Positions 2,914 through 23,000 of a stretch of 48,218 nucleotides of DNA are shown piece by piece. The stretch's first letter is position 1, and each line of letters opens with the position of its first letter. The notes below the pieces were generated by a model, which saw only the letters and a list, made by a program, of their open reading frames with translations, made no database searches and was not told the DNA's origin. The DNA is from an archaeon GW2011_AR19 (GTDB taxonomy: Archaea > Nanobdellota > Nanobdellia > Pacearchaeales > GW2011-AR1): contig JWKY01000008.1 of the NCBI GenBank assembly GCA_000806015.1, positions 1 through 48,218 of the forward strand, in the 5' to 3' direction. Both the position numbers and the translations under genes were made by a program.

Positions 2914-3161
2914 GTTATTTAGTTAAAGTGGATAAAAAGGCGCAAGATTTTCTTGATAAACTTCCTCAAAATATTTCCTTGAGGATTATTAATAAATTGG
3001 AGCAAATTAAAGAAAATCCTTTTCATTTTCTTGAACATTATGAAGGAGAATATTATAAGTTAAGAATTGGAGATTATAGGGCTTTAATGGATATTGATTT
3101 TCAAAGAAAAATAATTTGGGTTAGAATAATAGATAAACGGGGAAGAGTTTATAAAAGATAA
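2910..3161 (+). CDS. relE: RelE/ParE family toxin
   Basis: YKLRIGDYRAL motif, 83 aa. Confidence 0.9.
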   Translation: MSYLVKVDKKAQDFLDKLPQNISLRIINKLEQIKENPFHFLEHYEGEYYKLRIGDYRALMDIDFQRKIIWVRIIDKRGRVYKR

Positions 3162-3315
3162 ATTATAAAATTTTGCGAACCGATTGATAAAACAATATTT
3201 GCAGGCGAGATGCCGGATTATCTTGGGGGATTGGGTTGAAATAGGGAAGAGAAATATTTTTAAAGAGGATAATAATAATAATAGAAAACTAATTGTTTTC
3301 TGATTTAGAATTAAT

Positions 3316-4557
3316 TTAATCTAACTTTTCACCAGCCTTCATTTTTTCAAATTTTTTACTAAATCTTTCTATAGCTCCTTTATTGCTTTCTGTTTCTTTT
3401 GCTAATCTTATTGCTTTTTCTTCAATTTGTATTGCTTTTGCTGTGTCTCCTAAGACATAAAGAAGACATGCATAGGTGTCATTATTATTTGGATTATCTG
3501 CTATTTTTACTGAATTTTCTGACCAATTCAATGCTTTTTCTAAATGATCTTTATTTTTTATATTTTTAAAAAATGTCCAAGCAACATCATTTAATTTATC
3601 TGCGCTATAATTCCTGTTGTGTTTATCTATCAATAAAATCGCGTTATTAGCATACTCTTCCCAGTTTTTTATTTTTTCATTATATTGTAAATCTACTTCA
3701 AGTAGAACCCCATCAACTCTTGAAAAATTTTGTTCTTTTATTTTATTTTTCCATTCTTGATAAATAGAATCATTAAATGATTTTTTATATAAAATATTAT
3801 TAAAATTAGAAGAGTATGCATTAAAAATTTTTTCATCTACAGAATCTGAAGTATAAATTTCGTCAAATTTAATTTTATTTTTTATTAAATAATTGAAAGT
3901 CTCAGAATTTATATCTGTATTATTTTTATTAATAAAAAGGATGTTCCAATTAACTCTTGAATTAAGGTCTTCATCTTTTTGTGTTTTGAAATAATCTTTT
4001 GAAATATATTCATAACTTATAGATGCCCCATCTAATTTTTTTAAATATTCATATATAAATTCGCCGTCTCTATTGCCTTCTTCATATTTTTCATTGAATG
4101 TTGCAAGCTGTGTTTTTGGATCTGACGCTTCTTTACCAAGTTTAATAAATTCAGGAGATTTCATCCAGCCTACCCCTTTATGGAGTAATTTTCCTTCTCC
4201 ATTAATATACAAAAATGTTGGATAAGCTCCTATAGAAAATAATTTTTTTATCTTTTTTCCTTCTTCTGATTCCATATCCATTTTTATATTCAGAAAATTT
4301 TTATTATAAAAATCAGCTACACTGTCATTAGTGAAAACTTCTTTATCCATTTTTTTACAAGGACCGCACCAAACGGCATATCCATCCATAAAAATTAATT
4401 TATTTGTGTTTTTTGCTTCATTTTTAGCGTTTTCAAAATTTCCCCCATAAAATTCTATTGAACGATTTTGAGTATAAGCCGTAATTGTAGAAAGAGAGAG
4501 GCTAATTCCAAGTGCAATTTGTTTTATTGGTTTTTTTAGTTTGTTTATTAAATTCAT
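3316..4557 (-). CDS. Secreted thioredoxin-fold protein with C-terminal TPR-like helices
   Basis: Signal-like N-terminus, WCGPCK active site, YPTF cis-Pro motif, LNDVAW...DTYACLLY TPR-like segment. Confidence 0.85.
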   Translation of the reverse strand: MNLINKLKKPIKQIALGISLSLSTITAYTQNRSIEFYGGNFENAKNEAKNTNKLIFMDGYAVWCGPCKKMDKEVFTNDSVADFYNKNFLNIKMDMESEEGKKIKKLFSIGAYPTFLYINGEGKLLHKGVGWMKSPEFIKLGKEASDPKTQLATFNEKYEEGNRDGEFIYEYLKKLDGASISYEYISKDYFKTQKDEDLNSRVNWNILFINKNNTDINSETFNYLIKNKIKFDEIYTSDSVDEKIFNAYSSNFNNILYKKSFNDSIYQEWKNKIKEQNFSRVDGVLLEVDLQYNEKIKNWEEYANNAILLIDKHNRNYSADKLNDVAWTFFKNIKNKDHLEKALNWSENSVKIADNPNNNDTYACLLYVLGDTAKAIQIEEKAIRLAKETESNKGAIERFSKKFEKMKAGEKLD

Positions 4558-10650: not shown

Positions 10651-11679
10651 ATGTCAATTATTTTAGGAATTGAATCAACAGCGCACACTTTTGGAATTGG
10701 AATTGTAAAAAATGGAAAAATTCTTTCAAATATTAAAAGCAGTTTTACAACTGAAAAAGGCGGGCTGATTCCCCTGGAAGTTGCTAAGCATCATCGGGAA
10801 AATAAAGAAAGAATTTATTTTGAATCTTTAGAAAAAGCAGGAATCAGCGAGGAGAAAATTGATGCAATTGCTTTTTCTCAGGGTCCTGGATTGGCTCCTT
10901 GTCTGCTTGAAGGAATAAAATTTGCAAAAGAGATTTCATTAAAATTAAAAAAACCAATTATTCCCGTGAATCATTGTGTTGCTCATCTTGAAATTGGTCA
11001 AATAACTGGTGCGAGAGATCCGGTCATGCTTTATGCTTCCGGAGCAAATACTCAAGTGATTGCTTATGCTTCTGGAAAATATAGGGTTTTTGGAGAAACT
11101 TTGGACATTGGCGTCGGTAATTTTATTGACACTTTTGCGCGCTACGCAGGAATTGGTTTTCCCGGAGGACCAGCAATAGAAAAATTATCTTTAACAGGAA
11201 AAACTTTAATTGAATTGCCTTACACAATCAAAGGAATGGATTGCGCTTTTTCAGGAATTTTAACTAATTTAAAACAAAAATTGGAATCTGGGTCCCCAAG
11301 GGATGACTCTGATGAGCCTTCTGGTGAGCCTAATTATAAATTATCTGATTTAGCATATTCAATGCAGGAAGTTGTTTTTGCAATGCTGGTTGAAACTGCA
11401 GAAAGAGCTTTGGCGCACACCGGAAAAAATGAATTGCTTTTAGGAGGAGGTGTTGCATGCAATTCAAGATTACAAGAAATGTGCAAAATAATGTGCGATG
11501 AAAGAGGGGCTAAATTTTTTGTTCCATCAAATGATTTATTAACTGATAACGGCAGTATGATCGCATATTTGGGTGAAATTTTATTTAAAAATAGAGATTT
11601 TATTCTAGCTAAAGATATTGATAAAGTAGACATAGCCCCACGTCAACGAACTGACGATGTAGAAATAAAATATAAGTGA
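10651..11679 (+). CDS. kae1: tRNA t6A threonylcarbamoyltransferase Kae1/TsaD
   Basis: GIESTAHT, GPGLAPCL, NHCVAHLE, GGGVACN, DNGSMIA. Confidence 0.95.
   Translation: MSIILGIESTAHTFGIGIVKNGKILSNIKSSFTTEKGGLIPLEVAKHHRENKERIYFESLEKAGISEEKIDAIAFSQGPGLAPCLLEGIKFAKEISLKLKKPIIPVNHCVAHLEIGQITGARDPVMLYASGANTQVIAYASGKYRVFGETLDIGVGNFIDTFARYAGIGFPGGPAIEKLSLTGKTLIELPYTIKGMDCAFSGILTNLKQKLESGSPRDDSDEPSGEPNYKLSDLAYSMQEVVFAMLVETAERALAHTGKNELLLGGGVACNSRLQEMCKIMCDERGAKFFVPSNDLLTDNGSMIAYLGEILFKNRDFILAKDIDKVDIAPRQRTDDVEIKYK
11293..11331 (+). repeat. Family C in-frame coding repeat (39-bp form, SPRDDSDEPSGEP)
   Basis: TCCCCAAGGGATGACTCTGATGAGCCTTCTGGTGAGCCT inside kae1. Confidence 0.9.
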
Positions 11680-12686
11680 GGCCAATGTGTTTTATCGAAT
11701 TGGATTAATCCTTCTTTTTTGAGTTTTGATAAATAATGATTAACTACTCTTTTGCTTTTTTTAAGATGATTAGCAAATTCCTCCGAGGTTACTTTTTTAT
11801 TCAATTTTTTTAATTCTTTTACATAAAATTCTTTATAGCTGTTTCTTGAAATCTGATTTCTTTTAAAACTACCCATAATCTCTTTCCAAGATTTCTCTTT
11901 TTTTGAATTATAGAACTTTATCCCTATTTCAGATAATTTATTAAAATCTTCCCATCCAGAAATATTTATTTCATATTCTTTATCATTATTTTTTCTAAAT
12001 TTACATCCAATGTCTATTTTATTTAATAATTCTGCCCACTGCTCTAAATATTTTTTGTTTCTCATTCTTACTCTTAATTTCCTGTATAATTGATAATGAT
12101 TAATTGAACCTTCACAATCTATTAACGCGCTAAATGCTGAAGCTATTAACTCGGTGTTTTTAGGAAGCATATATTCTCCTATTTCTAATTTCTTTTTATT
12201 AGCATATTTATCCAGAAATTCTAATAATTTTTTAGTTGGAAACCTTAAATCGCCATATGCCCAACATTCTAAATTTCCTTCACATATTATTTTATCTTTT
12301 AGGTATTTTATATTAATAAGATATATTCTATTATTATAGTTGATTGATATTTTATGATTTTTCTTATAAGGGAGGCTTGTAACAGCTTTTACTTTATTTT
12401 CATCAAAAGGGCTTTTTTCTATGTGAAAATTTAACTCTTTATTTTTCTCAATCAATTTCACCTCTTCTTTTTTTGTATTATTGTTCAGTCTTATTTTAAG
12501 TAATATTCTTTTTCCAACTTTCATACCTAAATTATTTGCTAGTTCTTCAATATGGTTTAGTAAAGGAAGGTCTTTATTCTGAATTGTTAAAGTAAAATTT
12601 TTTGATGACCAATATCCTTTTACTTTGAGTGCTTCAATTAAGTAAGCCGTGTCTTTATTTATCTTAATTTCTGAATAAGCAATCAT
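11643..12686 (-). CDS. Free-standing LAGLIDADG homing-endonuclease-like protein with C-terminal winged HTH
   Basis: SAFSALIDCEGSI motif, degenerate first motif TAYLIEALKVKGY, C-terminal SEEFANHLKKSKRVVNHYLSKLKKEGLI. Confidence 0.75.
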   Translation of the reverse strand: MIAYSEIKINKDTAYLIEALKVKGYWSSKNFTLTIQNKDLPLLNHIEELANNLGMKVGKRILLKIRLNNNTKKEEVKLIEKNKELNFHIEKSPFDENKVKAVTSLPYKKNHKISINYNNRIYLINIKYLKDKIICEGNLECWAYGDLRFPTKKLLEFLDKYANKKKLEIGEYMLPKNTELIASAFSALIDCEGSINHYQLYRKLRVRMRNKKYLEQWAELLNKIDIGCKFRKNNDKEYEINISGWEDFNKLSEIGIKFYNSKKEKSWKEIMGSFKRNQISRNSYKEFYVKELKKLNKKVTSEEFANHLKKSKRVVNHYLSKLKKEGLIQFDKTHWPHLYFISTSSVR

Positions 12687-12729
12687 AGCATAAATAGTCT
12701 ATTAATCTATTTAAATGTTGCTTTTTGAC

Positions 12730-12855
12730 GCAATGATTGGCTTCTTAGGAGAAATTATGTTCAAGAAAGGAATTAAATTTTCTCATAAAAATTTAGATGA
12801 AGTTGATATTTTACCGAGGCAAAGAACTGACGAAGTTCAAATTAATTGGAAATGA
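12730..12855 (+). pseudogene. Second, divergent copy of the kae1 3' end
   Basis: AMIGFLGEIMFKKGIKFSHKNLDEVDILPRQRTDEVQINWK* vs kae1 SMIAYLGEILFKNRDFILAKDIDKVDIAPRQRTDDVEIKYK*. Confidence 0.9.
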
Positions 12856-12896
12856 ACTTCTATTGTGATGGATTTTTTCAAGAATAAAAAATCCTA

Positions 12897-12929
12897 AGAA
12901 CCGACGACGTGGAAGTTTTTTGGAAATAA
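12897..12929 (+). pseudogene. Third, short copy of the kae1 extreme 3' end
   Basis: RTDDVEVFWK*, preceded by hairpin GGATTTTTT-CAAGAAT-AAAAAATCC. Confidence 0.7.
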
Positions 12930-12973
12930 ATAATAACAATAATATTTAAATATCTCATTTTTATTATTAAATT

Positions 12974-14971
12974 ATGAAAAAATTGGCGATAATCTTTGGA
13001 TTATTTTTATTAATGTCTGTTGCATTTGTTTCTGCGCATTATAATTCTGAAAATGATTTAGATAAAAACGGAAAAGTTTCTTTTAGCGAATGGATAAAAA
13101 ATATTTTTGGAAAAATTACTGGGAAAGCATTGGACCAACCTCAACAGGGACCTCTTCCTCTTTGCCTTGACAGCGACGGAGATGGTTATAACTCTACTAT
13201 TGGTGACGCGTGTGGGAGAGTTGTAGATTGCAATGACCTCAATAAGCTAATCTATCCTGGAGCTCCAGAGAATACCACTGCTCTTTGTTCGGACAATTTA
13301 GATAATGATTGTGATTTTGGAAAAGATTGCGCGGATTCTAATTGCAATTTAAAACTTAGTACAGGAGGAAAAACTTGTCAATATGGAACTGAGACAACTT
13401 GTAATGATGTTTTCGACAACGATGCTGATGGAAAAATAGATTGCGCTGATTCTGATTGTAGTTCTTCTTCTTCTTCTTCGTGTGTGCAAGTTGGTTGCGT
13501 GAATGGCGCTACCCAAATCTGCGGGACTACTGATGCTGGAGAGTGTAATAAAGGAGTTCAAACTTGCTCAAGTGGGCAATGGAGTGCTTGCGGAGGTGCT
13601 TATGTAGGTCCTGCAACAGAAATCTGCGGAAATAATATTGATGAGGATTGTAACGGGGTTGATTTGGTTTGTCCTATTACTGCTTGCACAGATACCGACG
13701 CTGGAATAAATTACACTATTGCAGGAAGCGCATATAATTTAACTTTTTTAAATTCTCCAAAACAAGATTATTGCATTAATAATACTCATTTAAATGAAAG
13801 TTCCTGCTCTGTAAATAATGCAGTTATTTCTCAACCTTATAATTGTAAATTATTAGGCGCTGCATATTCGTGCTCTCAAGGAGCATGCTCCTGCAACCCT
13901 ACTTATGTAAAATCCAGCTGTGCAAACGAAATCGCAGTTTTTGAAGACGCAAGCGCCTGTGGCGCTTCTGATTATACTGCGCCTTATGACTGCGACGGAA
14001 ACGGGGTAATTTCAAAACCTTCCTGCATTTCAACAACTGCTGACGTTTCAATAGGAGAAGGAATGGAATTTTTGCCTTTTGATAATTCAATAAATTATTC
14101 AGGCGCGGGTTCGCAAATAGTGCAGGTAGCAGAAGGTTATCAGGGAGTTGAATTTGACTGGAATTTTTCAGCTTCAGAAAAACTTGATTTTTGTGACATT
14201 GAAATTAAAACCTCTTCTCCAACAAATAACTTTGGTTATGTTTTGTTTAATTCAACTCAAAATATCTCCAATAAAATAGTTTATGTTGATAAATTAAATT
14301 CAAGTTCAGGAGCAGTTTGCATAAAAGATGTTTCCGGAGTTGTTTCAGTCAGTGAATTTAGTTCTAATTGTTCTGCAAGCAACGAAGTTTTATTGATATG
14401 TCCCTCCCCAAGGGATGACTCTGGTGAGCCTTCTCCGACTAATTCAATTTATAATTGTGATATTTCAGAGGATAATCTTACATTTATTGTTTGGCCTTTA
14501 AATCATTCTGCAGTTAAAGAGATGTTATCAATTACCGGATTAGTCAGCGACGGAACAGGATGTTTTGAAAATTGGAATTGCACCGAATGGTCTGACGCTG
14601 TTAATCAGTGCGGAACAAAAACTTGCAATGATTTAAATAATTGCGGGACAAATCTTTCAAGACCCTTAGAAATTAAAAGTTGTGTTTTGATTGGAGAGAC
14701 AGAAGGAGACGAATTTGAGACAGGCACAAGTGAAAGTCGGGAATCTAATACAAAATCTGTTCTTTTTATTATCCTTGGAATTGTCGGACTTATTTTAATT
14801 ATTTTTCTTATTTTGCATTTTATGAAAAGAGGAAAATCTGAAGAAGAATTTTCAGAGCCTCCAGCACACCATCAACAAACTCCTCCTCCAAGAAGTCTGC
14901 CTGCTCCTCCTCAAAACAGAGCAGTTCATCATAACCAATATCAACATACTCAGTTAGCTCCTCAGCGTTAG
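12974..14971 (+). CDS. Cys-rich surface protein with putative metal-binding (DxDGDG/DCND/DNDCD) repeats, C-terminal TM and Pro/Gln tail
   Basis: Signal peptide, DSDGDGY..DCNDLNKLIYPGAPE, EICGNNIDEDCNG, hydrophobic anchor. Confidence 0.8.
   Translation: MKKLAIIFGLFLLMSVAFVSAHYNSENDLDKNGKVSFSEWIKNIFGKITGKALDQPQQGPLPLCLDSDGDGYNSTIGDACGRVVDCNDLNKLIYPGAPENTTALCSDNLDNDCDFGKDCADSNCNLKLSTGGKTCQYGTETTCNDVFDNDADGKIDCADSDCSSSSSSSCVQVGCVNGATQICGTTDAGECNKGVQTCSSGQWSACGGAYVGPATEICGNNIDEDCNGVDLVCPITACTDTDAGINYTIAGSAYNLTFLNSPKQDYCINNTHLNESSCSVNNAVISQPYNCKLLGAAYSCSQGACSCNPTYVKSSCANEIAVFEDASACGASDYTAPYDCDGNGVISKPSCISTTADVSIGEGMEFLPFDNSINYSGAGSQIVQVAEGYQGVEFDWNFSASEKLDFCDIEIKTSSPTNNFGYVLFNSTQNISNKIVYVDKLNSSSGAVCIKDVSGVVSVSEFSSNCSASNEVLLICPSPRDDSGEPSPTNSIYNCDISEDNLTFIVWPLNHSAVKEMLSITGLVSDGTGCFENWNCTEWSDAVNQCGTKTCNDLNNCGTNLSRPLEIKSCVLIGETEGDEFETGTSESRESNTKSVLFIILGIVGLILIIFLILHFMKRGKSEEEFSEPPAHHQQTPPPRSLPAPPQNRAVHHNQYQHTQLAPQR
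14405..14431 (+). repeat. Family C in-frame coding repeat (SPRDDSGEP)
   Basis: TCCCCAAGGGATGACTCTGGTGAGCCT. Confidence 0.9.
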
Positions 14972-16545: not shown

Positions 16546-18747
16546 ATGGTGTATAAAAAGTATATTAAAAGAGGGGGTAAGTTATTTGGTCCGTATTATT
16601 ATAGAAGTATAAAAAAAGGCGGTAAGGTAATTACTCAATATGTTAAAAACCCAAACGATTTTCCCAAAAAAAAGTTTTCAATTGGCTATAAAAAGATTAA
16701 TAAAAATTTCTTAATTTTGCCGATACTCTTTTTAATTTTAATTGCAGGTTTCTTTATTCTTAAGCCCGTTTTAACCGGTAAGGTAATTCTTTCTGTTGAT
16801 AATTCTTATGTTTCTCAGGAAGCTCTTTTTGGCGAACTAAAGCTGAATTTAGAGCCAAATGAATTTATTCCTGCAGATACAAAAGTTTTAATTAACAATG
16901 AAGAATTTATTTTAAGAAATTTAATAAAAGAAATTCCAAAACCGGGAGAATTTTATGTTTCTGGAACAGAAATTTCCGGGAAAGGAGAGGGCTATGGTTC
17001 AGGAAATCCGGAAGTTTTTTTTGTTTTGAATATTTTGTCTGAGAAAGAGAAGGATAAAGAAATTTCTAAGGGAATTTTAGAAAATGAAACAACAGAATCT
17101 AATGAAGCTGAAGAAGAAACAGAAACAATAGAATCTAATGAAACTAAAGAAGAAATTCCTGCAGAAATAACAACTTCTGAAATTCCTGAAACTGAAGAAT
17201 CCCCAAGGGATGACACTGGTGAGCCTCAAACACCAATAGAAGAAATAGAAGAGACAACTCCGGCAACAGGGCAAATAATTTTGAATTTTTTTAATAAAAT
17301 ATTTTTGACAATTACAGGAAAAACTGCTCTTGAAAATGTTAATGAAGTTTCAGGAAGAGTTTCTAAAGACAAGCCAATTGTTTATGCGCTTGAACAGGGT
17401 CAGACAGCTGAAATAAAAAATTCAAATGAAAAAGTAAATTTGGAAATAATAAACAATACAGCGACTATAACAACGGATTATTCAGGCGAGAGGGCGGAAT
17501 ATTTGATAAATTTGTCTGAATTAAATATTCTTACAGGACAAAATGAATTTGAAATTAAATTAATTTACAACGACACTGAATTTGCTTCTATAGTTAAAAA
17601 TGTTAAATTTGAAAGCAATGAAACAAATATTACCGGGAGCAGTGTGATTTTTGAAAATCTTACAGAAGAGATAATTCAGCATACAGCAATTGCAGGAAAG
17701 CCGGTAAAATGGACAAAAAAAATAAAAGCAGATAGTCGGGAAACAAATGTTCTGCTTCCAAAAGAGGCAGAAAATATTTCGATTTATAAATTGGAGAATA
17801 CAATTGCTGCGGATTTGAATAATTCAATAACCGGAAGTTTGATTTTAAGTTATGAAAAAGAAAATCCTGGTTTTTTTAATAGATTATTTGCTTTTATTAC
17901 AGGAAGAGCAGTAGAGATTATTGAAAGGCAGGAAGAAATTGAAATTAATATCAGCGAAAATGCAAATAGTGATTATGAAATTGAATATTTTACTCCCGGA
18001 CCTGAAATTACAGAAAAAAATATTTCTAATGGAAAAGAGATTGTAATTTCTTCTGAAGTTAATTATGAAAACATTTTAGCATATACGGCTCTTCCCGAGA
18101 ATATTAATTTAGAAGAAATTAAACTTTATCATAAAATAAATGGTTCTACACCCGACGGTGTATCCTCTGGTGAGGTAAGAGTTTTAGTGGATTTTATTGC
18201 TTATACCGAAGACAATAAAATTGTAGAAAATGAAAATGATTTAGATGATGATGTTTTGAATGAAATTGAAAATAAAGTTTTGAAAAAAGAAGAAAATGAA
18301 ATTATGGAAAATAAATCTTTGGATAAACCATACAGGAATATAATTTATGGAGAAGAAATCCAAGAGAAATTAGATTATCAAATTAAAAAAATAAGAACAG
18401 AAAGCAAAGAAAAAGTTTCTTATATTGAATGGATTGTTCCGCATTTGTCAAATCAGACTTATGAACTTATTTTAATTTCAAAAGCAGAACATCTTGACGA
18501 AAATAAAACTTTTATTGAAGATGTTTATGAGCAGGTAAAAGAAAGAGATGGCAATTTTACAAACGAAATTCCTGCAAAACATTACATCAGAGTAACTTTT
18601 GAAAAAAATCTGACAAATGAAAATGATATTACAATTTATGCAAAGGCGGGCTGCAATGGCTCCATAAAAATAAATGAAATAGATGTTCCTTGCGAGATTT
18701 ATGAAAAGAAAATGAGGCTTGATTCCTTAAGAGGTGAAAATGGATAA
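16546..18747 (+). CDS. Large membrane-anchored acidic surface protein
   Basis: Basic N-terminus, TM, repeated (I/L)TG(K/R/S) motifs, Glu/Thr-rich linker. Confidence 0.75.
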   Translation: MVYKKYIKRGGKLFGPYYYRSIKKGGKVITQYVKNPNDFPKKKFSIGYKKINKNFLILPILFLILIAGFFILKPVLTGKVILSVDNSYVSQEALFGELKLNLEPNEFIPADTKVLINNEEFILRNLIKEIPKPGEFYVSGTEISGKGEGYGSGNPEVFFVLNILSEKEKDKEISKGILENETTESNEAEEETETIESNETKEEIPAEITTSEIPETEESPRDDTGEPQTPIEEIEETTPATGQIILNFFNKIFLTITGKTALENVNEVSGRVSKDKPIVYALEQGQTAEIKNSNEKVNLEIINNTATITTDYSGERAEYLINLSELNILTGQNEFEIKLIYNDTEFASIVKNVKFESNETNITGSSVIFENLTEEIIQHTAIAGKPVKWTKKIKADSRETNVLLPKEAENISIYKLENTIAADLNNSITGSLILSYEKENPGFFNRLFAFITGRAVEIIERQEEIEINISENANSDYEIEYFTPGPEITEKNISNGKEIVISSEVNYENILAYTALPENINLEEIKLYHKINGSTPDGVSSGEVRVLVDFIAYTEDNKIVENENDLDDDVLNEIENKVLKKEENEIMENKSLDKPYRNIIYGEEIQEKLDYQIKKIRTESKEKVSYIEWIVPHLSNQTYELILISKAEHLDENKTFIEDVYEQVKERDGNFTNEIPAKHYIRVTFEKNLTNENDITIYAKAGCNGSIKINEIDVPCEIYEKKMRLDSLRGENG
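17200..17226 (+). repeat. Family C in-frame coding repeat (SPRDDTGEP)
   Basis: TCCCCAAGGGATGACACTGGTGAGCCT. Confidence 0.9.
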
Positions 18748-20083: not shown

Positions 20084-23000
20084 AATAAAAAATTTAACAA
20101 TATTTGGAATAATATTAATTTCTATTTTCTTATTTATATTTTTAGCAAGCGCATTAACTCCGCAGGAAGAGATTGCGCAATTAGAAAACGAATTAAACAG
20201 CGCGGGTTATGATTGGCTCGTTAACTATTCCCTAAGGGATGACCCTCATGGGCCTAATTTAACTTATCCTAGAGTTGAAGTTTATGAGAAAGATAAGAAT
20301 GATACAATTGCAACTTTTGAAAAAATCAGCGAAGACAAGGAATATAAAATTTATCTGACAAATCTAAATGGAAGCCAGAACACTTTTGATTTGAAAGTTT
20401 TTTCCCCAAGGGATGACTCTGGTGAGCCTGGAGGAAGTGTTTGGTTTGATTATATTGTTGACCCGATTATTCTCGGAAATGCCAATTCAGTAAATACAAA
20501 CACAACTTATGAAAACAACTTCACGCACTTAAACGTCTCAAATTCATCAATAATTGCATATTATCCTTTTGATGTTAATAATAATTCTGATGGAATAACT
20601 TATGATTATACAGACAAGAATAATGATGGAGTTAAAATGACTGGAGTAACTTTTAACAATACTGGATGTATTTATGGAAATTGTTATACTTTTAGAGGTT
20701 CTGATGCCAGTAATCTTACTCTTCCTAATGGCGCAGGAGTTTATGGTTCATCTCCAAGAACACTGTCTGTATGGGTAAAAACAACAGATACTTTTGGAGC
20801 ATTTTGGGCTTATGGAAATAGAAATGCAAATACTGAGGAATTTACATTATTTATAAACAGCGGTTCAACTATATTGCTTAAAATTCAAGGAGCGGGAATG
20901 ATTCAATGGCCAACTTCTAACGTTCTAAATGGAAATTGGCATAATGTTGTTTTAACTTATAATGGAAGCACAATTAATAATTCTGAATTATATTTAGATG
21001 GAGTTAAATTAGTCAGAACTGAACTTACTGTAGGAACTCCAAACACTCAACCTAAATTCTTTATACTTGGCATGGCTCAATATGCGGGGTATGAATTTGC
21101 AGGAGAATTAGATGAATTTATGGTTTGGAATACTGCTTTAACCGCTGACGAAGTTTTAGCGATTTACAACAACCAAACAAATAGATTTTTTCCAACAGGA
21201 ACAATGAATTGGACGGGTGTGAATTTTGCAGGAAATGATACAATAAATATAACTTTGCAGGGTTGTCAGCAAAACATGGGAAGCTCTTTGAAAGCAAGTG
21301 TCAATGACGGGGCTTTTGTTGCATTTGACAGCAATTGTTTTATTCAGGATTACAATGCAACAGGAGATTTAAATTCTGCAAATGTGACAATTCAATTTCT
21401 TGCAGGAACAAATAATTTTTACACTCCGTTGGTAATTGGGAATTTGAGTTTGGATAATAGAGATGCAATTTTCCCGCAAATCTCTTTCAAATCCCCGACG
21501 CCTGCAAATGGAACTATCAGCTCAGACAATAATTCAATCATCATAAATACTTCTATAACTGAATTAAATTTAAATACGGCAAAATTTAATTGGAACGGAA
21601 CTAATTTCACGATTTTCAATGATTCAACAGTTTTGCATTTGGGTTTGAATAATTTTTCAGCAATTGGAGAAAACGGAACTCGTGTTGTGGATGTTTCAAA
21701 ATATGAAAATCACGGAACACCTAATGGGGCATTTTTTAATAGCACAGGAGGATTTTATGGCGGAGGTTATACTTTTGACGGCGTGAATGATTTTATTAAT
21801 GTTAGCGACCCTTCAAGTCTTAATATAACTGGCAAAATAACAGTTGCGTCTTGGATTAAACTTTCAGCATCTCAACTTAATGCACCCATTGTAGCAAGAT
21901 GGGGGAGCGACCAAAGTTATTTGCTGGGTGTAGACTATGTGACTGCTAATAAGATTATATTTGGAATTAGAGTTTCTGAGGTGTCTAAAACTGCAACTTC
22001 AACAAATACTTATAATGATGGGAAATGGCATCAAGTTGTTGGTGTTTTTAATGGAACAAATGTTTTGCTTTATATTGATGGAGGAGCAGAAGCGGTAACA
22101 GGAAGTGCAACAACAGGACCTATTGATGGACCCGCAAATAATGTTTTTATTGGAAGTTATAATTCCCTTGGTAATTTTTTCAACGGCTCAATAGATGAAG
22201 TCCGTATTTTTGACAGAGCTTTATCTGCAAACGAGGTTACACAATTGTATATGTCAAATTTGCAAAAGTTAAATAATACAGATTGGCTTCTTTATGTTAA
22301 TCAGACAAAGCATAATTCAACAACTGGTTTAGGCAACGGGCAATATACTTATTTCTCAACTGCTATAGATACGGCAGGAAATGAAAATTCAACTGAAACA
22401 AGGACAATAACTTTAGATACAACAAATCCAACTTTTACCTGGAACTCGCCAACACCCGCAGACAAAACATTTTCGTCAAGTAATTCTTCATATTTGAATG
22501 CAACAATTACCGACGCCAGTAATACTTCAGCATGGTTTGACTGGAACAAATCAGTTAAAGGATATTGGGCAATGGATTTCAGAAACTCAACAGATGTTTT
22601 TGATAATTCAACATACAGCAACTTTGGAACAATTTCAGGAGCAGTAGCAAACATTTCAGGAAAACGCGGGGATTCTTTTACTTTTGATGGTGTGAATGAT
22701 TTAATAAATATTAATACAGCAGTTGGTGATTTGGCTGCAACAACTAAAGGAACTTGGAGTGCTTGGGTTAAACCTGTTGATGCAACGCCTACGGCTCAAG
22801 ATGAAATTATTGCATTTGCTAATGGTGATCAGACAGATATGATACATCTTATGATAGATATAACGACTGGAAATTTTCGGATAAATGCTATAAATAATGG
22901 GGCAGCATTGTGGCAAGTGGCTACCGACGTTGCTCCTTTTTCTGATAATACCTGGACCCAGATTGCATTAGTTCAAGACGGGGTTTCGCCAGTTTTGTAT

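Follow-up and report, generated by a model that had tools for sequence, protein, structure and literature searches.

We analysed a 48,218-nucleotide stretch of DNA from the archaeon GW2011_AR19 (GenBank contig JWKY01000008.1, positions 1 to 48,218; hereafter the window), in which kae1, an essential tRNA-modification gene, carries what is very probably a homing cassette at its 3′ end. The window is contig C8 of a small archaeal genome (678 kb, 74.5% complete), relatives of which are labelled Pacearchaeota, Woesearchaeota or Nanoarchaeota in the sources. The sole full copy of kae1 in this genome lies on the forward strand at 10651–11679 and encodes 342 amino acids, matched by TIGR03722 (arch_KAE1) at 410.1 bits against a cut-off of 375 and by Pfam TsaD at 260.9 bits. 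Its body (codons 1–299, 10651–11547) runs up to the Asp of the DNG motif (residues 299–301) and groups with the uninvaded congeners G201 and G202 in a tree of kae1 bodies, consistent with vertical inheritance. From N300 to the stop (11548–11679, forward strand), the gene ends in the tail in current use, ...SMIAYLGEILFKN...PRQRTDDVEIKYK, which we read as an imported replacement. Over the last ~30 body codons (about 11460–11547, forward strand), similarity shifts from the host lineage to the cassette lineage, marking a putative co-conversion tract.

Converging on kae1, on the reverse strand at 11643–12686, is a free-standing homing endonuclease gene whose 347-residue product has two LAGLIDADG domains and a C-terminal winged helix. 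The antisense LAGLIDADG frame described in the original prediction does overlap the terminal kae1 codons by 37 nt (11643–11679), its last 11 codons and stop lying antisense to the last 12 kae1 codons and stop. Upstream of its ATG, a putative promoter region (12695–12716, reverse strand) holds a TATA-like box, ATTTAAATA, at 12708–12716 (−30 to −22 from the ATG) and TAGACTA at 12695–12701. Both elements, AAAcATTTAaATA at −33 to −22 and TAGACTA at −15 to −9, are kept in 33 distinct upstream regions, which have the consensus AAAcATTTAaATA....TaGACTA. We take the AAAcATTTAaATA box, which resembles the archaeal TATA consensus, for a TATA box with which the cassette would supply its own putative promoter. 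There are no other open reading frames of at least 60 residues on the insert, save a 61-residue frame antisense inside the endonuclease gene.

The right end of the inserted DNA and its junction with a second kae1 tail occupy 12717–12729, where the window copy has an indel and other loci read ...LFKCFP/NGAMIA (the slash marks the insertion point). The second tail, an orphan reading AMIGFLGEIMFKKGIKFSHKNLDEVDILPRQRTDEVQINWK up to its stop (12730–12855, forward strand), scored 85.6 bits against a hidden Markov model (HMM) of the kae1 tail; in a whole-genome search it was 54% identical to kae1 residues 302–342 (E 1.6e-7), it aligns as nucleotides with 11557–11679, and it is 60% identical to the in-gene tail. 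A divergent second C-terminus, as originally predicted, is thus present, with the correction that at the 5′ junction of the window orphan the N-G codons are missing and the frame is broken; other loci read LFKCFPNGAMIA there. Full orphans elsewhere begin ...LFKCFP/NGAMIAFLGEIMF, with the endonuclease start codon ~39 nt away, and the junction therefore lies directly after the Asp codon of DNG, as it does in every locus with a full orphan. Past the window orphan, a 41-nt spacer (12856–12896, forward strand) with a 9-bp A/U-rich hairpin at 12870–12894 leads to a third kae1 tail stub, RTDDVEVFWK and a stop (12897–12929, forward strand). With good confidence, then, we place a homing cassette of 1.18 kb at about 11548–12729, inserted in kae1 just after the Asp codon of DNG.

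The 347-residue protein was matched by Pfam LAGLIDADG_3 (PF14528) on residues 181–251 at 31.1 bits, against a cut-off of 22.5. In an alignment of 24 homologues of 35–80% identity, both LAGLIDADG motifs are conserved, as YLIEALKVEG and SAFSALIDCEGS; in the window copy, motif 1 spans residues 13–26 (TAYLIEALKVEGYW; 12609–12650, reverse strand) and motif 2 residues 181–195 (IASAFSALIDCEGSI; 12102–12146, reverse strand). The acidic residues E23 (KVEG) and E192 (DCEG) are invariant in all 24 homologues, as are D190 and G193 in motif 2. An AlphaFold2 model built from the homologue alignment (mean predicted local distance difference test score, pLDDT, 90.2; predicted template modelling score 0.82) places E23 and E192 at the C-terminal ends of the motif helices 11–23 and 178–192, each of which precedes beta sheets. 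The winged helix-turn-helix (wHTH) domain, residues 289–335 (11682–11822, reverse strand), was matched by HTH_5, HTH_11, HTH_24, Lrs14 and ArsR-type profiles, every one below cut-off, and in the model this region forms helices 281–295, 301–308 and 312–324 and strands 328–331 and 338–341. Foldseek against the PDB returned 55 matches at E ≤0.001, with probability 1.00 to LAGLIDADG enzymes and WhiA; the bacterial regulator WhiA was at the top (3hyi, E 1.7e-6), followed by I-Tsp061I, the TliVMA intein endonuclease, I-DmoI, PI-SceI, PI-PfuI, I-AniI and I-SceI.

On account of the Pfam match, the invariant acids, the model and the Foldseek matches, we identify the protein as a LAGLIDADG monomer of two domains in which the catalytic acids are retained and an extra DNA-binding domain is present. 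The fold proposed at the outset is hence supported by both profile and structure searches, while the first motif, which had been called degenerate, turned out to be unusual in sequence yet conserved, with its acidic residue kept. Ratios of non-synonymous to synonymous substitution rates (dN/dS) for the endonuclease gene were 0.13–0.21 in nine pairs, four of them including the window copy, indicating purifying selection. We find it rather likely that the window enzyme is still active. The genome holds no second copy of the endonuclease gene.

A word-indexed search covering lengths of 190–608 residues found 116 relatives of the protein, almost all of 340–350 residues, and an exhaustive profile search gave 247 cluster representatives at E ≤0.001 (34 at ≤1e-30), many of them fragments. 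We collected 53 related loci, about nine of which duplicate others; an alignment-based metagenome scan was more productive than a single-protein search of genome contigs, which yielded one locus, a duplicate of G115. In 38 of the 41 loci with enough flank, kae1 converges on the endonuclease gene, and an orphan tail is present in 41 of 48, so that homologues do lie antisense to kae1 and beside an orphan 3′ fragment, the linkage that the original prediction had proposed to look for. Within the core family (at least 50% identity, 45 loci), kae1 is convergent in 32 of 34 loci with at least 200 nt of flank, 30 of these with the identical 37-nt overlap, and an orphan lies beyond the endonuclease start in 39 of 41 (23 full length, 16 truncated). 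Among eight loci of distant relatives (36–43% identity), the corresponding counts are 6 of 7 and 2 of 7. The core exceptions in layout are L067, with kae1 upstream on the same strand and orphan remnants past the endonuclease gene, and L076, without kae1; the exceptions in orphans are L042, with a six-residue vestige, and L084, a truncated copy. There is also a W-type cassette variant without the overlap (G247/L092).

Two loci show the same-strand layout. In L067, kae1 lies at 1–678, the endonuclease gene at 948–1940 and the orphan remnants at 1967–2045; in L075, a distant relative, kae1 (2016–2993) is directly followed by the endonuclease gene (2998–3966). Separately, the uninvaded kae1 of L032 (G033) is flanked by weak LAGLIDADG-like matches at 73–393, 628–945 and 3065–3358 (E 0.001–0.04), which may be remains of other endonuclease genes.

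The tails fall into two classes. In-gene tails of core invaded alleles with the kae1 end on the contig read RQRTD.(V/L)EIKY[KR] before the stop, with one IEYK, whereas orphans and all 29 uninvaded alleles (L012–L040) finish in V.W[KR]; of 31 uninvaded loci, 30 had a single match to the tail HMM. Orphans carry host-lineage traits: a short-form deletion is common to those of L006 and L056 and to the native tail of L034, an uninvaded allele placed as their sister with strong support (99, starred) when kae1 bodies are compared. The body tree was built from 57 rows (20 invaded, 30 uninvaded, 7 distant or variant) over alignment columns ending four before D299, leaving out the duplicates L049, L051, L057, L061, L079 and L091 and loci without kae1 or with a partial copy. 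Invaded alleles are scattered over it, with 14 changes of state, at least 6 of them forced by starred branches, and several invaded/uninvaded sister pairs have support of at least 95; constraining the invaded alleles to one clade was rejected (log-likelihood difference 400; approximately unbiased test, p-AU, 9.8e-48).

The tail tree comprised 65 rows (20 imported, 30 native, 15 orphan), with seven duplicates and L069_B dropped and the last nine columns cut to keep the IKYK signature from deciding the outcome. Here 3 changes suffice for the imported tails, where shuffles require 17.2 (none of 500 gave so low a value), and a one-clade constraint on them beat the free search (p-AU 0.70); orphans are intermixed with native tails (13 changes over 15 rows). 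Built on 36 columns, the tail tree has poor resolution, and it supports an imported origin of the invaded tails without proving it.

The window allele shows the same mosaic at the nucleotide level. Codons 1–296 of its kae1 are 84.8% identical to G201 and 81.0% to G202, both uninvaded and of the same genus, and 73–75% to L041 and L042, the nearest invaded loci; for codons 300–342 the values are 61.2% (G201) and 55.8% (G202) against 91.5% (L041) and 92.2% (L042). The switch from host to cassette lineage falls in codon windows 266–305, and up to about 30 codons upstream of the insertion appear to have been co-converted. On the other side, the functional tail of G043, a third congener, together with the intergenic region and the gene that follow it, aligns colinearly at 82% with 12729–13099, the orphan itself being 82.1% identical in nucleotides to that functional tail. 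The ratio of non-synonymous to synonymous differences per site (pN/pS) of the orphan against the functional tails of G043, G201 and G202 was 0.28–0.34, and that of those tails among themselves 0.27–0.37; selection therefore acted on the orphan for the greater part of its divergence, and the insertion came late compared with the split from G043. An endonuclease gene beside kae1 is absent from all three congeners. In two of four sequencing runs, a contig joins 11525 to 12729 with 27 other letters and represents an uninvaded allele, which probably comes from a relative because the likeness is 85% and the short side has 25–30 letters.

Taken together, the in-gene tail is almost certainly imported and the downstream tail native. 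Comparison of the C-termini with the 5′ part of kae1, which the original prediction had called for, has the body following the hosts and the imported tails clustering, and the tail classes, the trees and the colinearity with G043 identify the downstream copy, not the in-gene end, as the vertically inherited one.

Around the insertion point, native alleles read cTtGTtGAT/AATGg.GCaATGATtGC and invaded alleles TTaacaGAt/AAcGG.ggtATGATaGC. The codon before the Asp is Val in 23 of 30 native alleles and Thr, Gln or Leu in 16 of 20 invaded ones, and these differences within ~10 bp of the insertion point, where binding and cutting by a LAGLIDADG enzyme would be expected, are candidates for immunity. 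In the mechanism that we propose, the enzyme would recognise and cut uninvaded kae1 at the L-V-D-N-G-A-M-I codons, and the break would be repaired by recombination with an invaded allele. Repair would copy the tail, the endonuclease gene and up to ~30 upstream codons into the recipient, whose own tail would be shifted downstream as a dead orphan, and the invaded allele would owe immunity to its altered nucleotides near the site. Later, the endonuclease gene would decay and be deleted, leaving scars, of which the third stub may be one from an earlier round. As the imported tail keeps Kae1 whole, neither intron nor intein would be necessary. The element is thus, in all likelihood, a tail-carrying homing cassette made up of a replacement for the last 43 codons, a convergent endonuclease gene and a TATA-type promoter of its own. 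The linkage, the fold, the mosaic kae1 and a series of decaying copies uphold the earlier proposal of a splice-free homing element in an essential archaeal gene.

The element is uncommon, and many copies have decayed. Among 401 genomes of the order, six have a full-length endonuclease gene (G000, G115, G144, G410, G309 and G247), and within-genus tallies are 1 of 21, 1 of 15 and 1 of 26, the last being a remnant only (G274). The IKY tail pattern occurs in nine of the 401 genomes, with no match in a reversed control: four of the nine have an intact gene, G274 keeps 85 codons, and in G254, G058, G348 and G245 just the last 19–35 endonuclease codons are left and the IKY tail is kept. G254 also has a truncated orphan 60 nt past the kae1 stop, and G309 has the cassette with an IKYR tail, its Arg codon falling outside the search pattern. 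Elsewhere, an in-frame TGA interrupts the endonuclease gene of G160, and G191 retains residues 230–347. Degenerate or deleted copies at occupied sites thus include G160, G191, G274, G254, G058, G348, G245, L084 and L076. In the order sample, remnants alone are left in five of ten invaded alleles, and about half of the invaded alleles have thus lost the gene and kept the imported tail.

Several observations weigh against the tail-carrying homing cassette as described. Across 17 invaded loci, endonuclease distances followed those of the host kae1 body (Mantel r 0.54, p 0.0002), as did tail distances (r 0.54, p 0.001), and tail and endonuclease distances correlated at r 0.33, with a partial correlation given the body of 0.07; spread has therefore been mostly among close kin, or inheritance vertical with frequent loss. 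The window endonuclease differs from its nearest relatives at a synonymous proportion (pS) of 0.53–0.57, slightly below the 0.61–0.76 of the kae1 bodies at those loci, a divergence so large that there is no recent donor among the sampled loci. The imported tail has a pS of 0.20–0.24 against L041/L042, far below the 0.53–0.57 of the endonuclease and the 0.61–0.65 of the kae1 body, which simple co-transfer would not predict; doubly coding sequence makes up just 37 of its 126 nt. The contig joint, probably from a relative, is the sole sign of invaded and uninvaded alleles in one community. Purifying selection, the wHTH domain and WhiA as the top fold match are also compatible with a protein of host function. 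The anatomy, the fold, the mosaic ancestry of kae1, the patchy distribution, the decay series and the selection on the reading frame are observed; cleavage, the exact target, immunity, promoter use and passage of DNA between cells are inferred. A pattern in which tails track the endonuclease gene rather than the host was considered and rejected, the Mantel and partial correlations having come out opposite, which argues against long-range transfer.

We weighed four other explanations. The element could be a true homing cassette by origin of which the window copy is now an inert, vertically inherited relic; we regard this as unlikely. The lack of a recent sampled donor (pS 0.53 to the nearest relative), the decay of many relatives and an endonuclease tree that partly follows the host would suit a relic, but the window reading frame is intact and full length, with both acids and the promoter box present, purifying selection is seen in all nine pairs, including the four with the window copy, and the barely decayed orphan tail points to recent gain.

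The original prediction had allowed for domestication, and a WhiA-like LAGLIDADG-wHTH regulator that no longer cuts, binding near the kae1 3′ end or its own promoter and controlling kae1, for example, through convergent transcription, is to our minds very improbable. The architecture of two LAGLIDADG domains with a C-terminal HTH is that of WhiA, the top match 3hyi has the same domain order, and the low dN/dS (0.13–0.21), the tracking of host divergence by endonuclease divergence and the conservation of the TAGACTA box between TATA box and ATG would all fit a regulator. WhiA is vertically conserved and is not known to have the catalytic acids. The 347-residue protein, unlike WhiA, is sporadic (present in six of the 401 genomes from the order and missing beside kae1 in all three congeners) and keeps both acids invariant, and sequence similarity between the two is negligible (Pfam LAGLIDADG_WhiA E 0.74). 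The remnants that make up half of the invaded alleles in the order sample also speak against domestication, which moreover leaves the imported and orphan tails unexplained.

An intron (group I, group II or bulge-helix-bulge) or intein-like insert, after removal of which the downstream tail would be used, is scarcely credible: archaeal LAGLIDADG genes do typically reside in introns and inteins, but no Rfam intron was found in 11300–13100 (one match, E 0.98, to an unrelated small RNA), the endonuclease gene runs antisense to kae1, the in-gene tail is whole and closed by a stop, the downstream tail is out of frame at the window junction and, among the 39 orphan-bearing core loci, truncated in 16, and four genomes keep the IKY tail after near-total loss of the endonuclease gene. 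Duplication of the tails by an integrase- or transposase-type element, or plain tandem duplication, with the LAGLIDADG gene as passenger, is equally far-fetched: integrative elements at gene 3′ ends also bring a replacement end, as in tRNA-gene integration, and G043 has the stub and hairpin spacer without an endonuclease gene, but the 1.18-kb insert carries no integrase or transposase and, A/T-rich chance matches aside, has neither inverted nor direct repeats at its ends, the two tails are just 60% identical, which rules against recent duplication, and the only partner that stays the same across the 53 loci is the LAGLIDADG gene.

The third stub, also noted in the original prediction, was recovered with the tail HMM (18.0 bits, E 7e-4); a regular expression for tail ends had no match in 6.2 Mb of shuffled loci, and a scan with it found three tails in the window alone among 49 cassette-bearing loci. 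The spacer before the stub is shared with G043 and absent from G201 and G202; its hairpin is not unusual in folding (z-score −0.6), no similar sequence was found in other loci outside G043, and tblastn found no endonuclease similarity in it. G043, which is without the cassette, has a functional tail, a spacer with the same 9-bp stem and then a stub, LRTDEVEVKWR and a stop. In G201 and G202, a single tail is directly followed by the conserved ATAAATAATAAC..., as is the window stub. The position of the stub makes it orthologous to the end of that single tail, and the conserved intergenic sequence follows it without a break; we therefore take it for the end of the older native tail. Because uninvaded G043 shares the stub, it predates the present insertion, and a block of ~170 nt (tail and spacer) appears to have displaced it before that event.

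The stub may thus record an earlier cycle, with the window as a re-invaded allele and G043 as an intermediate state, a reading for which we see the case as evenly balanced. As the spacer has no endonuclease similarity, taking it for a scar rests on analogy with G254, whose working tail, short remnant and truncated orphan would represent a post-deletion state. Against an earlier cycle, the second tail ends in W-K and not IKYK, though the W-type cassette variant exists (G247/L092), and between the window and G043 stubs there are 5 synonymous and 3 non-synonymous codon differences, an unexpected pattern for a fragment that died long ago. Of the suggestion that kae1 was targeted more than once, an earlier cycle accordingly stands at even chances, while a derivation of the stub from the present element does not hold.

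Comparable elements are described in fungal mitochondria. PMC3630166 lists mobile open reading frames (mORFs) with a foreign C-terminus in atp6 of Allomyces macrogynus, cited there as the first case of a C-terminus-carrying mORF, in atp6, atp9, cox2 and nad3 of Glomus sp., in atp9 of Rhizopus and in cox2 of Mortierella. In Glomus, according to the same paper, a LAGLIDADG or GIY-YIG frame brings the inserted C-terminus, which is transcribed with the gene body, and the native C-terminus lies ~1 kb downstream and is still close to that of relatives. The kae1 cassette is alike in having an intron-free endonuclease frame placed within the 3′ portion of a protein-coding gene (three of the four Glomus frames are of the LAGLIDADG type), an inserted C-terminus in frame and a native C-terminus duplicated downstream, and in a native tail that resembles those of relatives more than the inserted one does (91–98% against 64–81% in Glomus, 82% against 61% for kae1). 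Unlike the mORFs described there, which are organellar and lie in phase or downstream on the same strand, it is found on the chromosome of an archaeon of the DPANN group, a genome of 678 kb, targets kae1 and is convergent with a 37-nt overlap; convergence holds in 38 of 41 loci and the same-strand layout is limited to L067 and L075. The winged helix, the putative archaeal promoter and a decay series of ~50 loci further set it apart from those mORFs. Relative to the fungal cases, novelty lies in the domain of life, in the replicon and target, in the antisense overlap and the winged helix, and in the size of the comparative series.

Other systems share single traits with the kae1 cassette. In what is called intronless homing, free-standing endonucleases of T4-like phages (SegF, MobE and others) are likewise reported to spread by cutting a nearby conserved gene in genomes without the endonuclease gene and dragging flanking markers along, but they are intergenic, leave no orphan gene end, are of the GIY-YIG or HNH type and act in mixed infection. 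In Ophiostoma mitochondria, LAGLIDADG genes are fused in frame into rps3 (PMC7902536). Such a gene also enters protein-coding sequence directly and keeps the host frame whole, but it is an in-frame fusion to the host protein within a group I intron-encoded gene, and organellar. I-DmoI, I-Tsp061I, PI-PfuI and TliVMA resemble the kae1 enzyme in fold, in being two-motif monomers, in their archaeal hosts and in occupying conserved sites of essential genes; they need RNA or protein splicing, whereas the kae1 element replaces the gene end. Association with self-splicing introns or inteins is, according to a review of the field (PMC3943268), what lets homing endonucleases invade conserved coding sequence. 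The kae1 family would invade a conserved gene without splicing, on a prokaryotic chromosome and by means of a spare gene end, which amounts to a third way in. A literature search, with subscription journals outside its scope and papers on homing endonucleases in DPANN or on intronless homing in archaea judged by title or abstract, found no description of such an element for archaea or for kae1.

A second essential gene shows the same kind of arrangement. At glyS, LAGLIDADG-wHTH paralogues of 305–419 residues, 23–30% identical to the kae1 protein, converge on the 3′ end of the glycyl-tRNA synthetase (GlyRS) gene in 3 of the 401 genomes of the order: L094 (G018) at 1084–2004, L096 (G012) at 1132–2049 and L095 (G230) at 844–2103. 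Orphan GlyRS tails lie just past the endonuclease start in L094 (935–1039, E 2.8e-5) and L096 (975–1082, E 3.5e-4); that of L095 is a by-eye candidate only.

For the ~50 kae1 loci, the material amounts to an unusually complete series of the homing cycle, with intact, stop-codon, truncated, scar and re-invaded states. As kae1 is a universal marker and its last 43 codons, with up to ~30 before them, are chimeric in invaded lineages, this region should be trimmed in phylogenies; orphan tails and stubs are in addition prone to mis-annotation as small open reading frames. With its extra winged-helix domain and a predicted target that is defined and highly conserved, the enzyme is also a candidate for a natural meganuclease. 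The antisense endonuclease codons in the imported tail may act as a lock that binds the tail to the endonuclease and hinders clean deletion.

A wider reading, which we put forward tentatively and judge a little short of an even chance as a whole, is that DPANN and other archaea host a guild of LAGLIDADG end-swapping cassettes at the ends of essential translation genes (kae1, glyS), free of intron or intein. Over successive rounds of invasion, decay and renewed invasion, fossil gene ends would pile up, as in the window with its imported tail, native tail and older stub. The cassettes would also keep moving C-termini of core proteins from one lineage to another, so that core genes of prokaryotes would recombine by a route not recognised so far.

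Elsewhere in kae1, a hypervariable insertion point lies at 11280–11347 (codons ~211–232). Four genomes (G026, G024, G020 and G010) have inserts of variable length there, with split matches to 1–213 and 221–342 and open frames of 383–394 residues, and metagenome contigs swap 57–65 nt for other letters at the same point. A 27-nt repeat, TCCCCAAGGGATGACTCTGGTGAGCCT, has five copies in the window (11293–11319, 14405–14431, 17200–17226, 20229–20255 and 20403–20429), one of them in the kae1 variable loop and one in a downstream 665-residue secreted protein, and it reads SPRDDSGEP in the frames of both; its 17-nt core occurs 5 times, against 0 expected from shuffles. The orphan tail of L054 holds a peptide similar to SPRDDSGEP. 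Near-identical nucleotides of the TCCCCAAGGGATGACTCTGGTGAGCCT repeat across different genes suggest an element acting at the DNA level.

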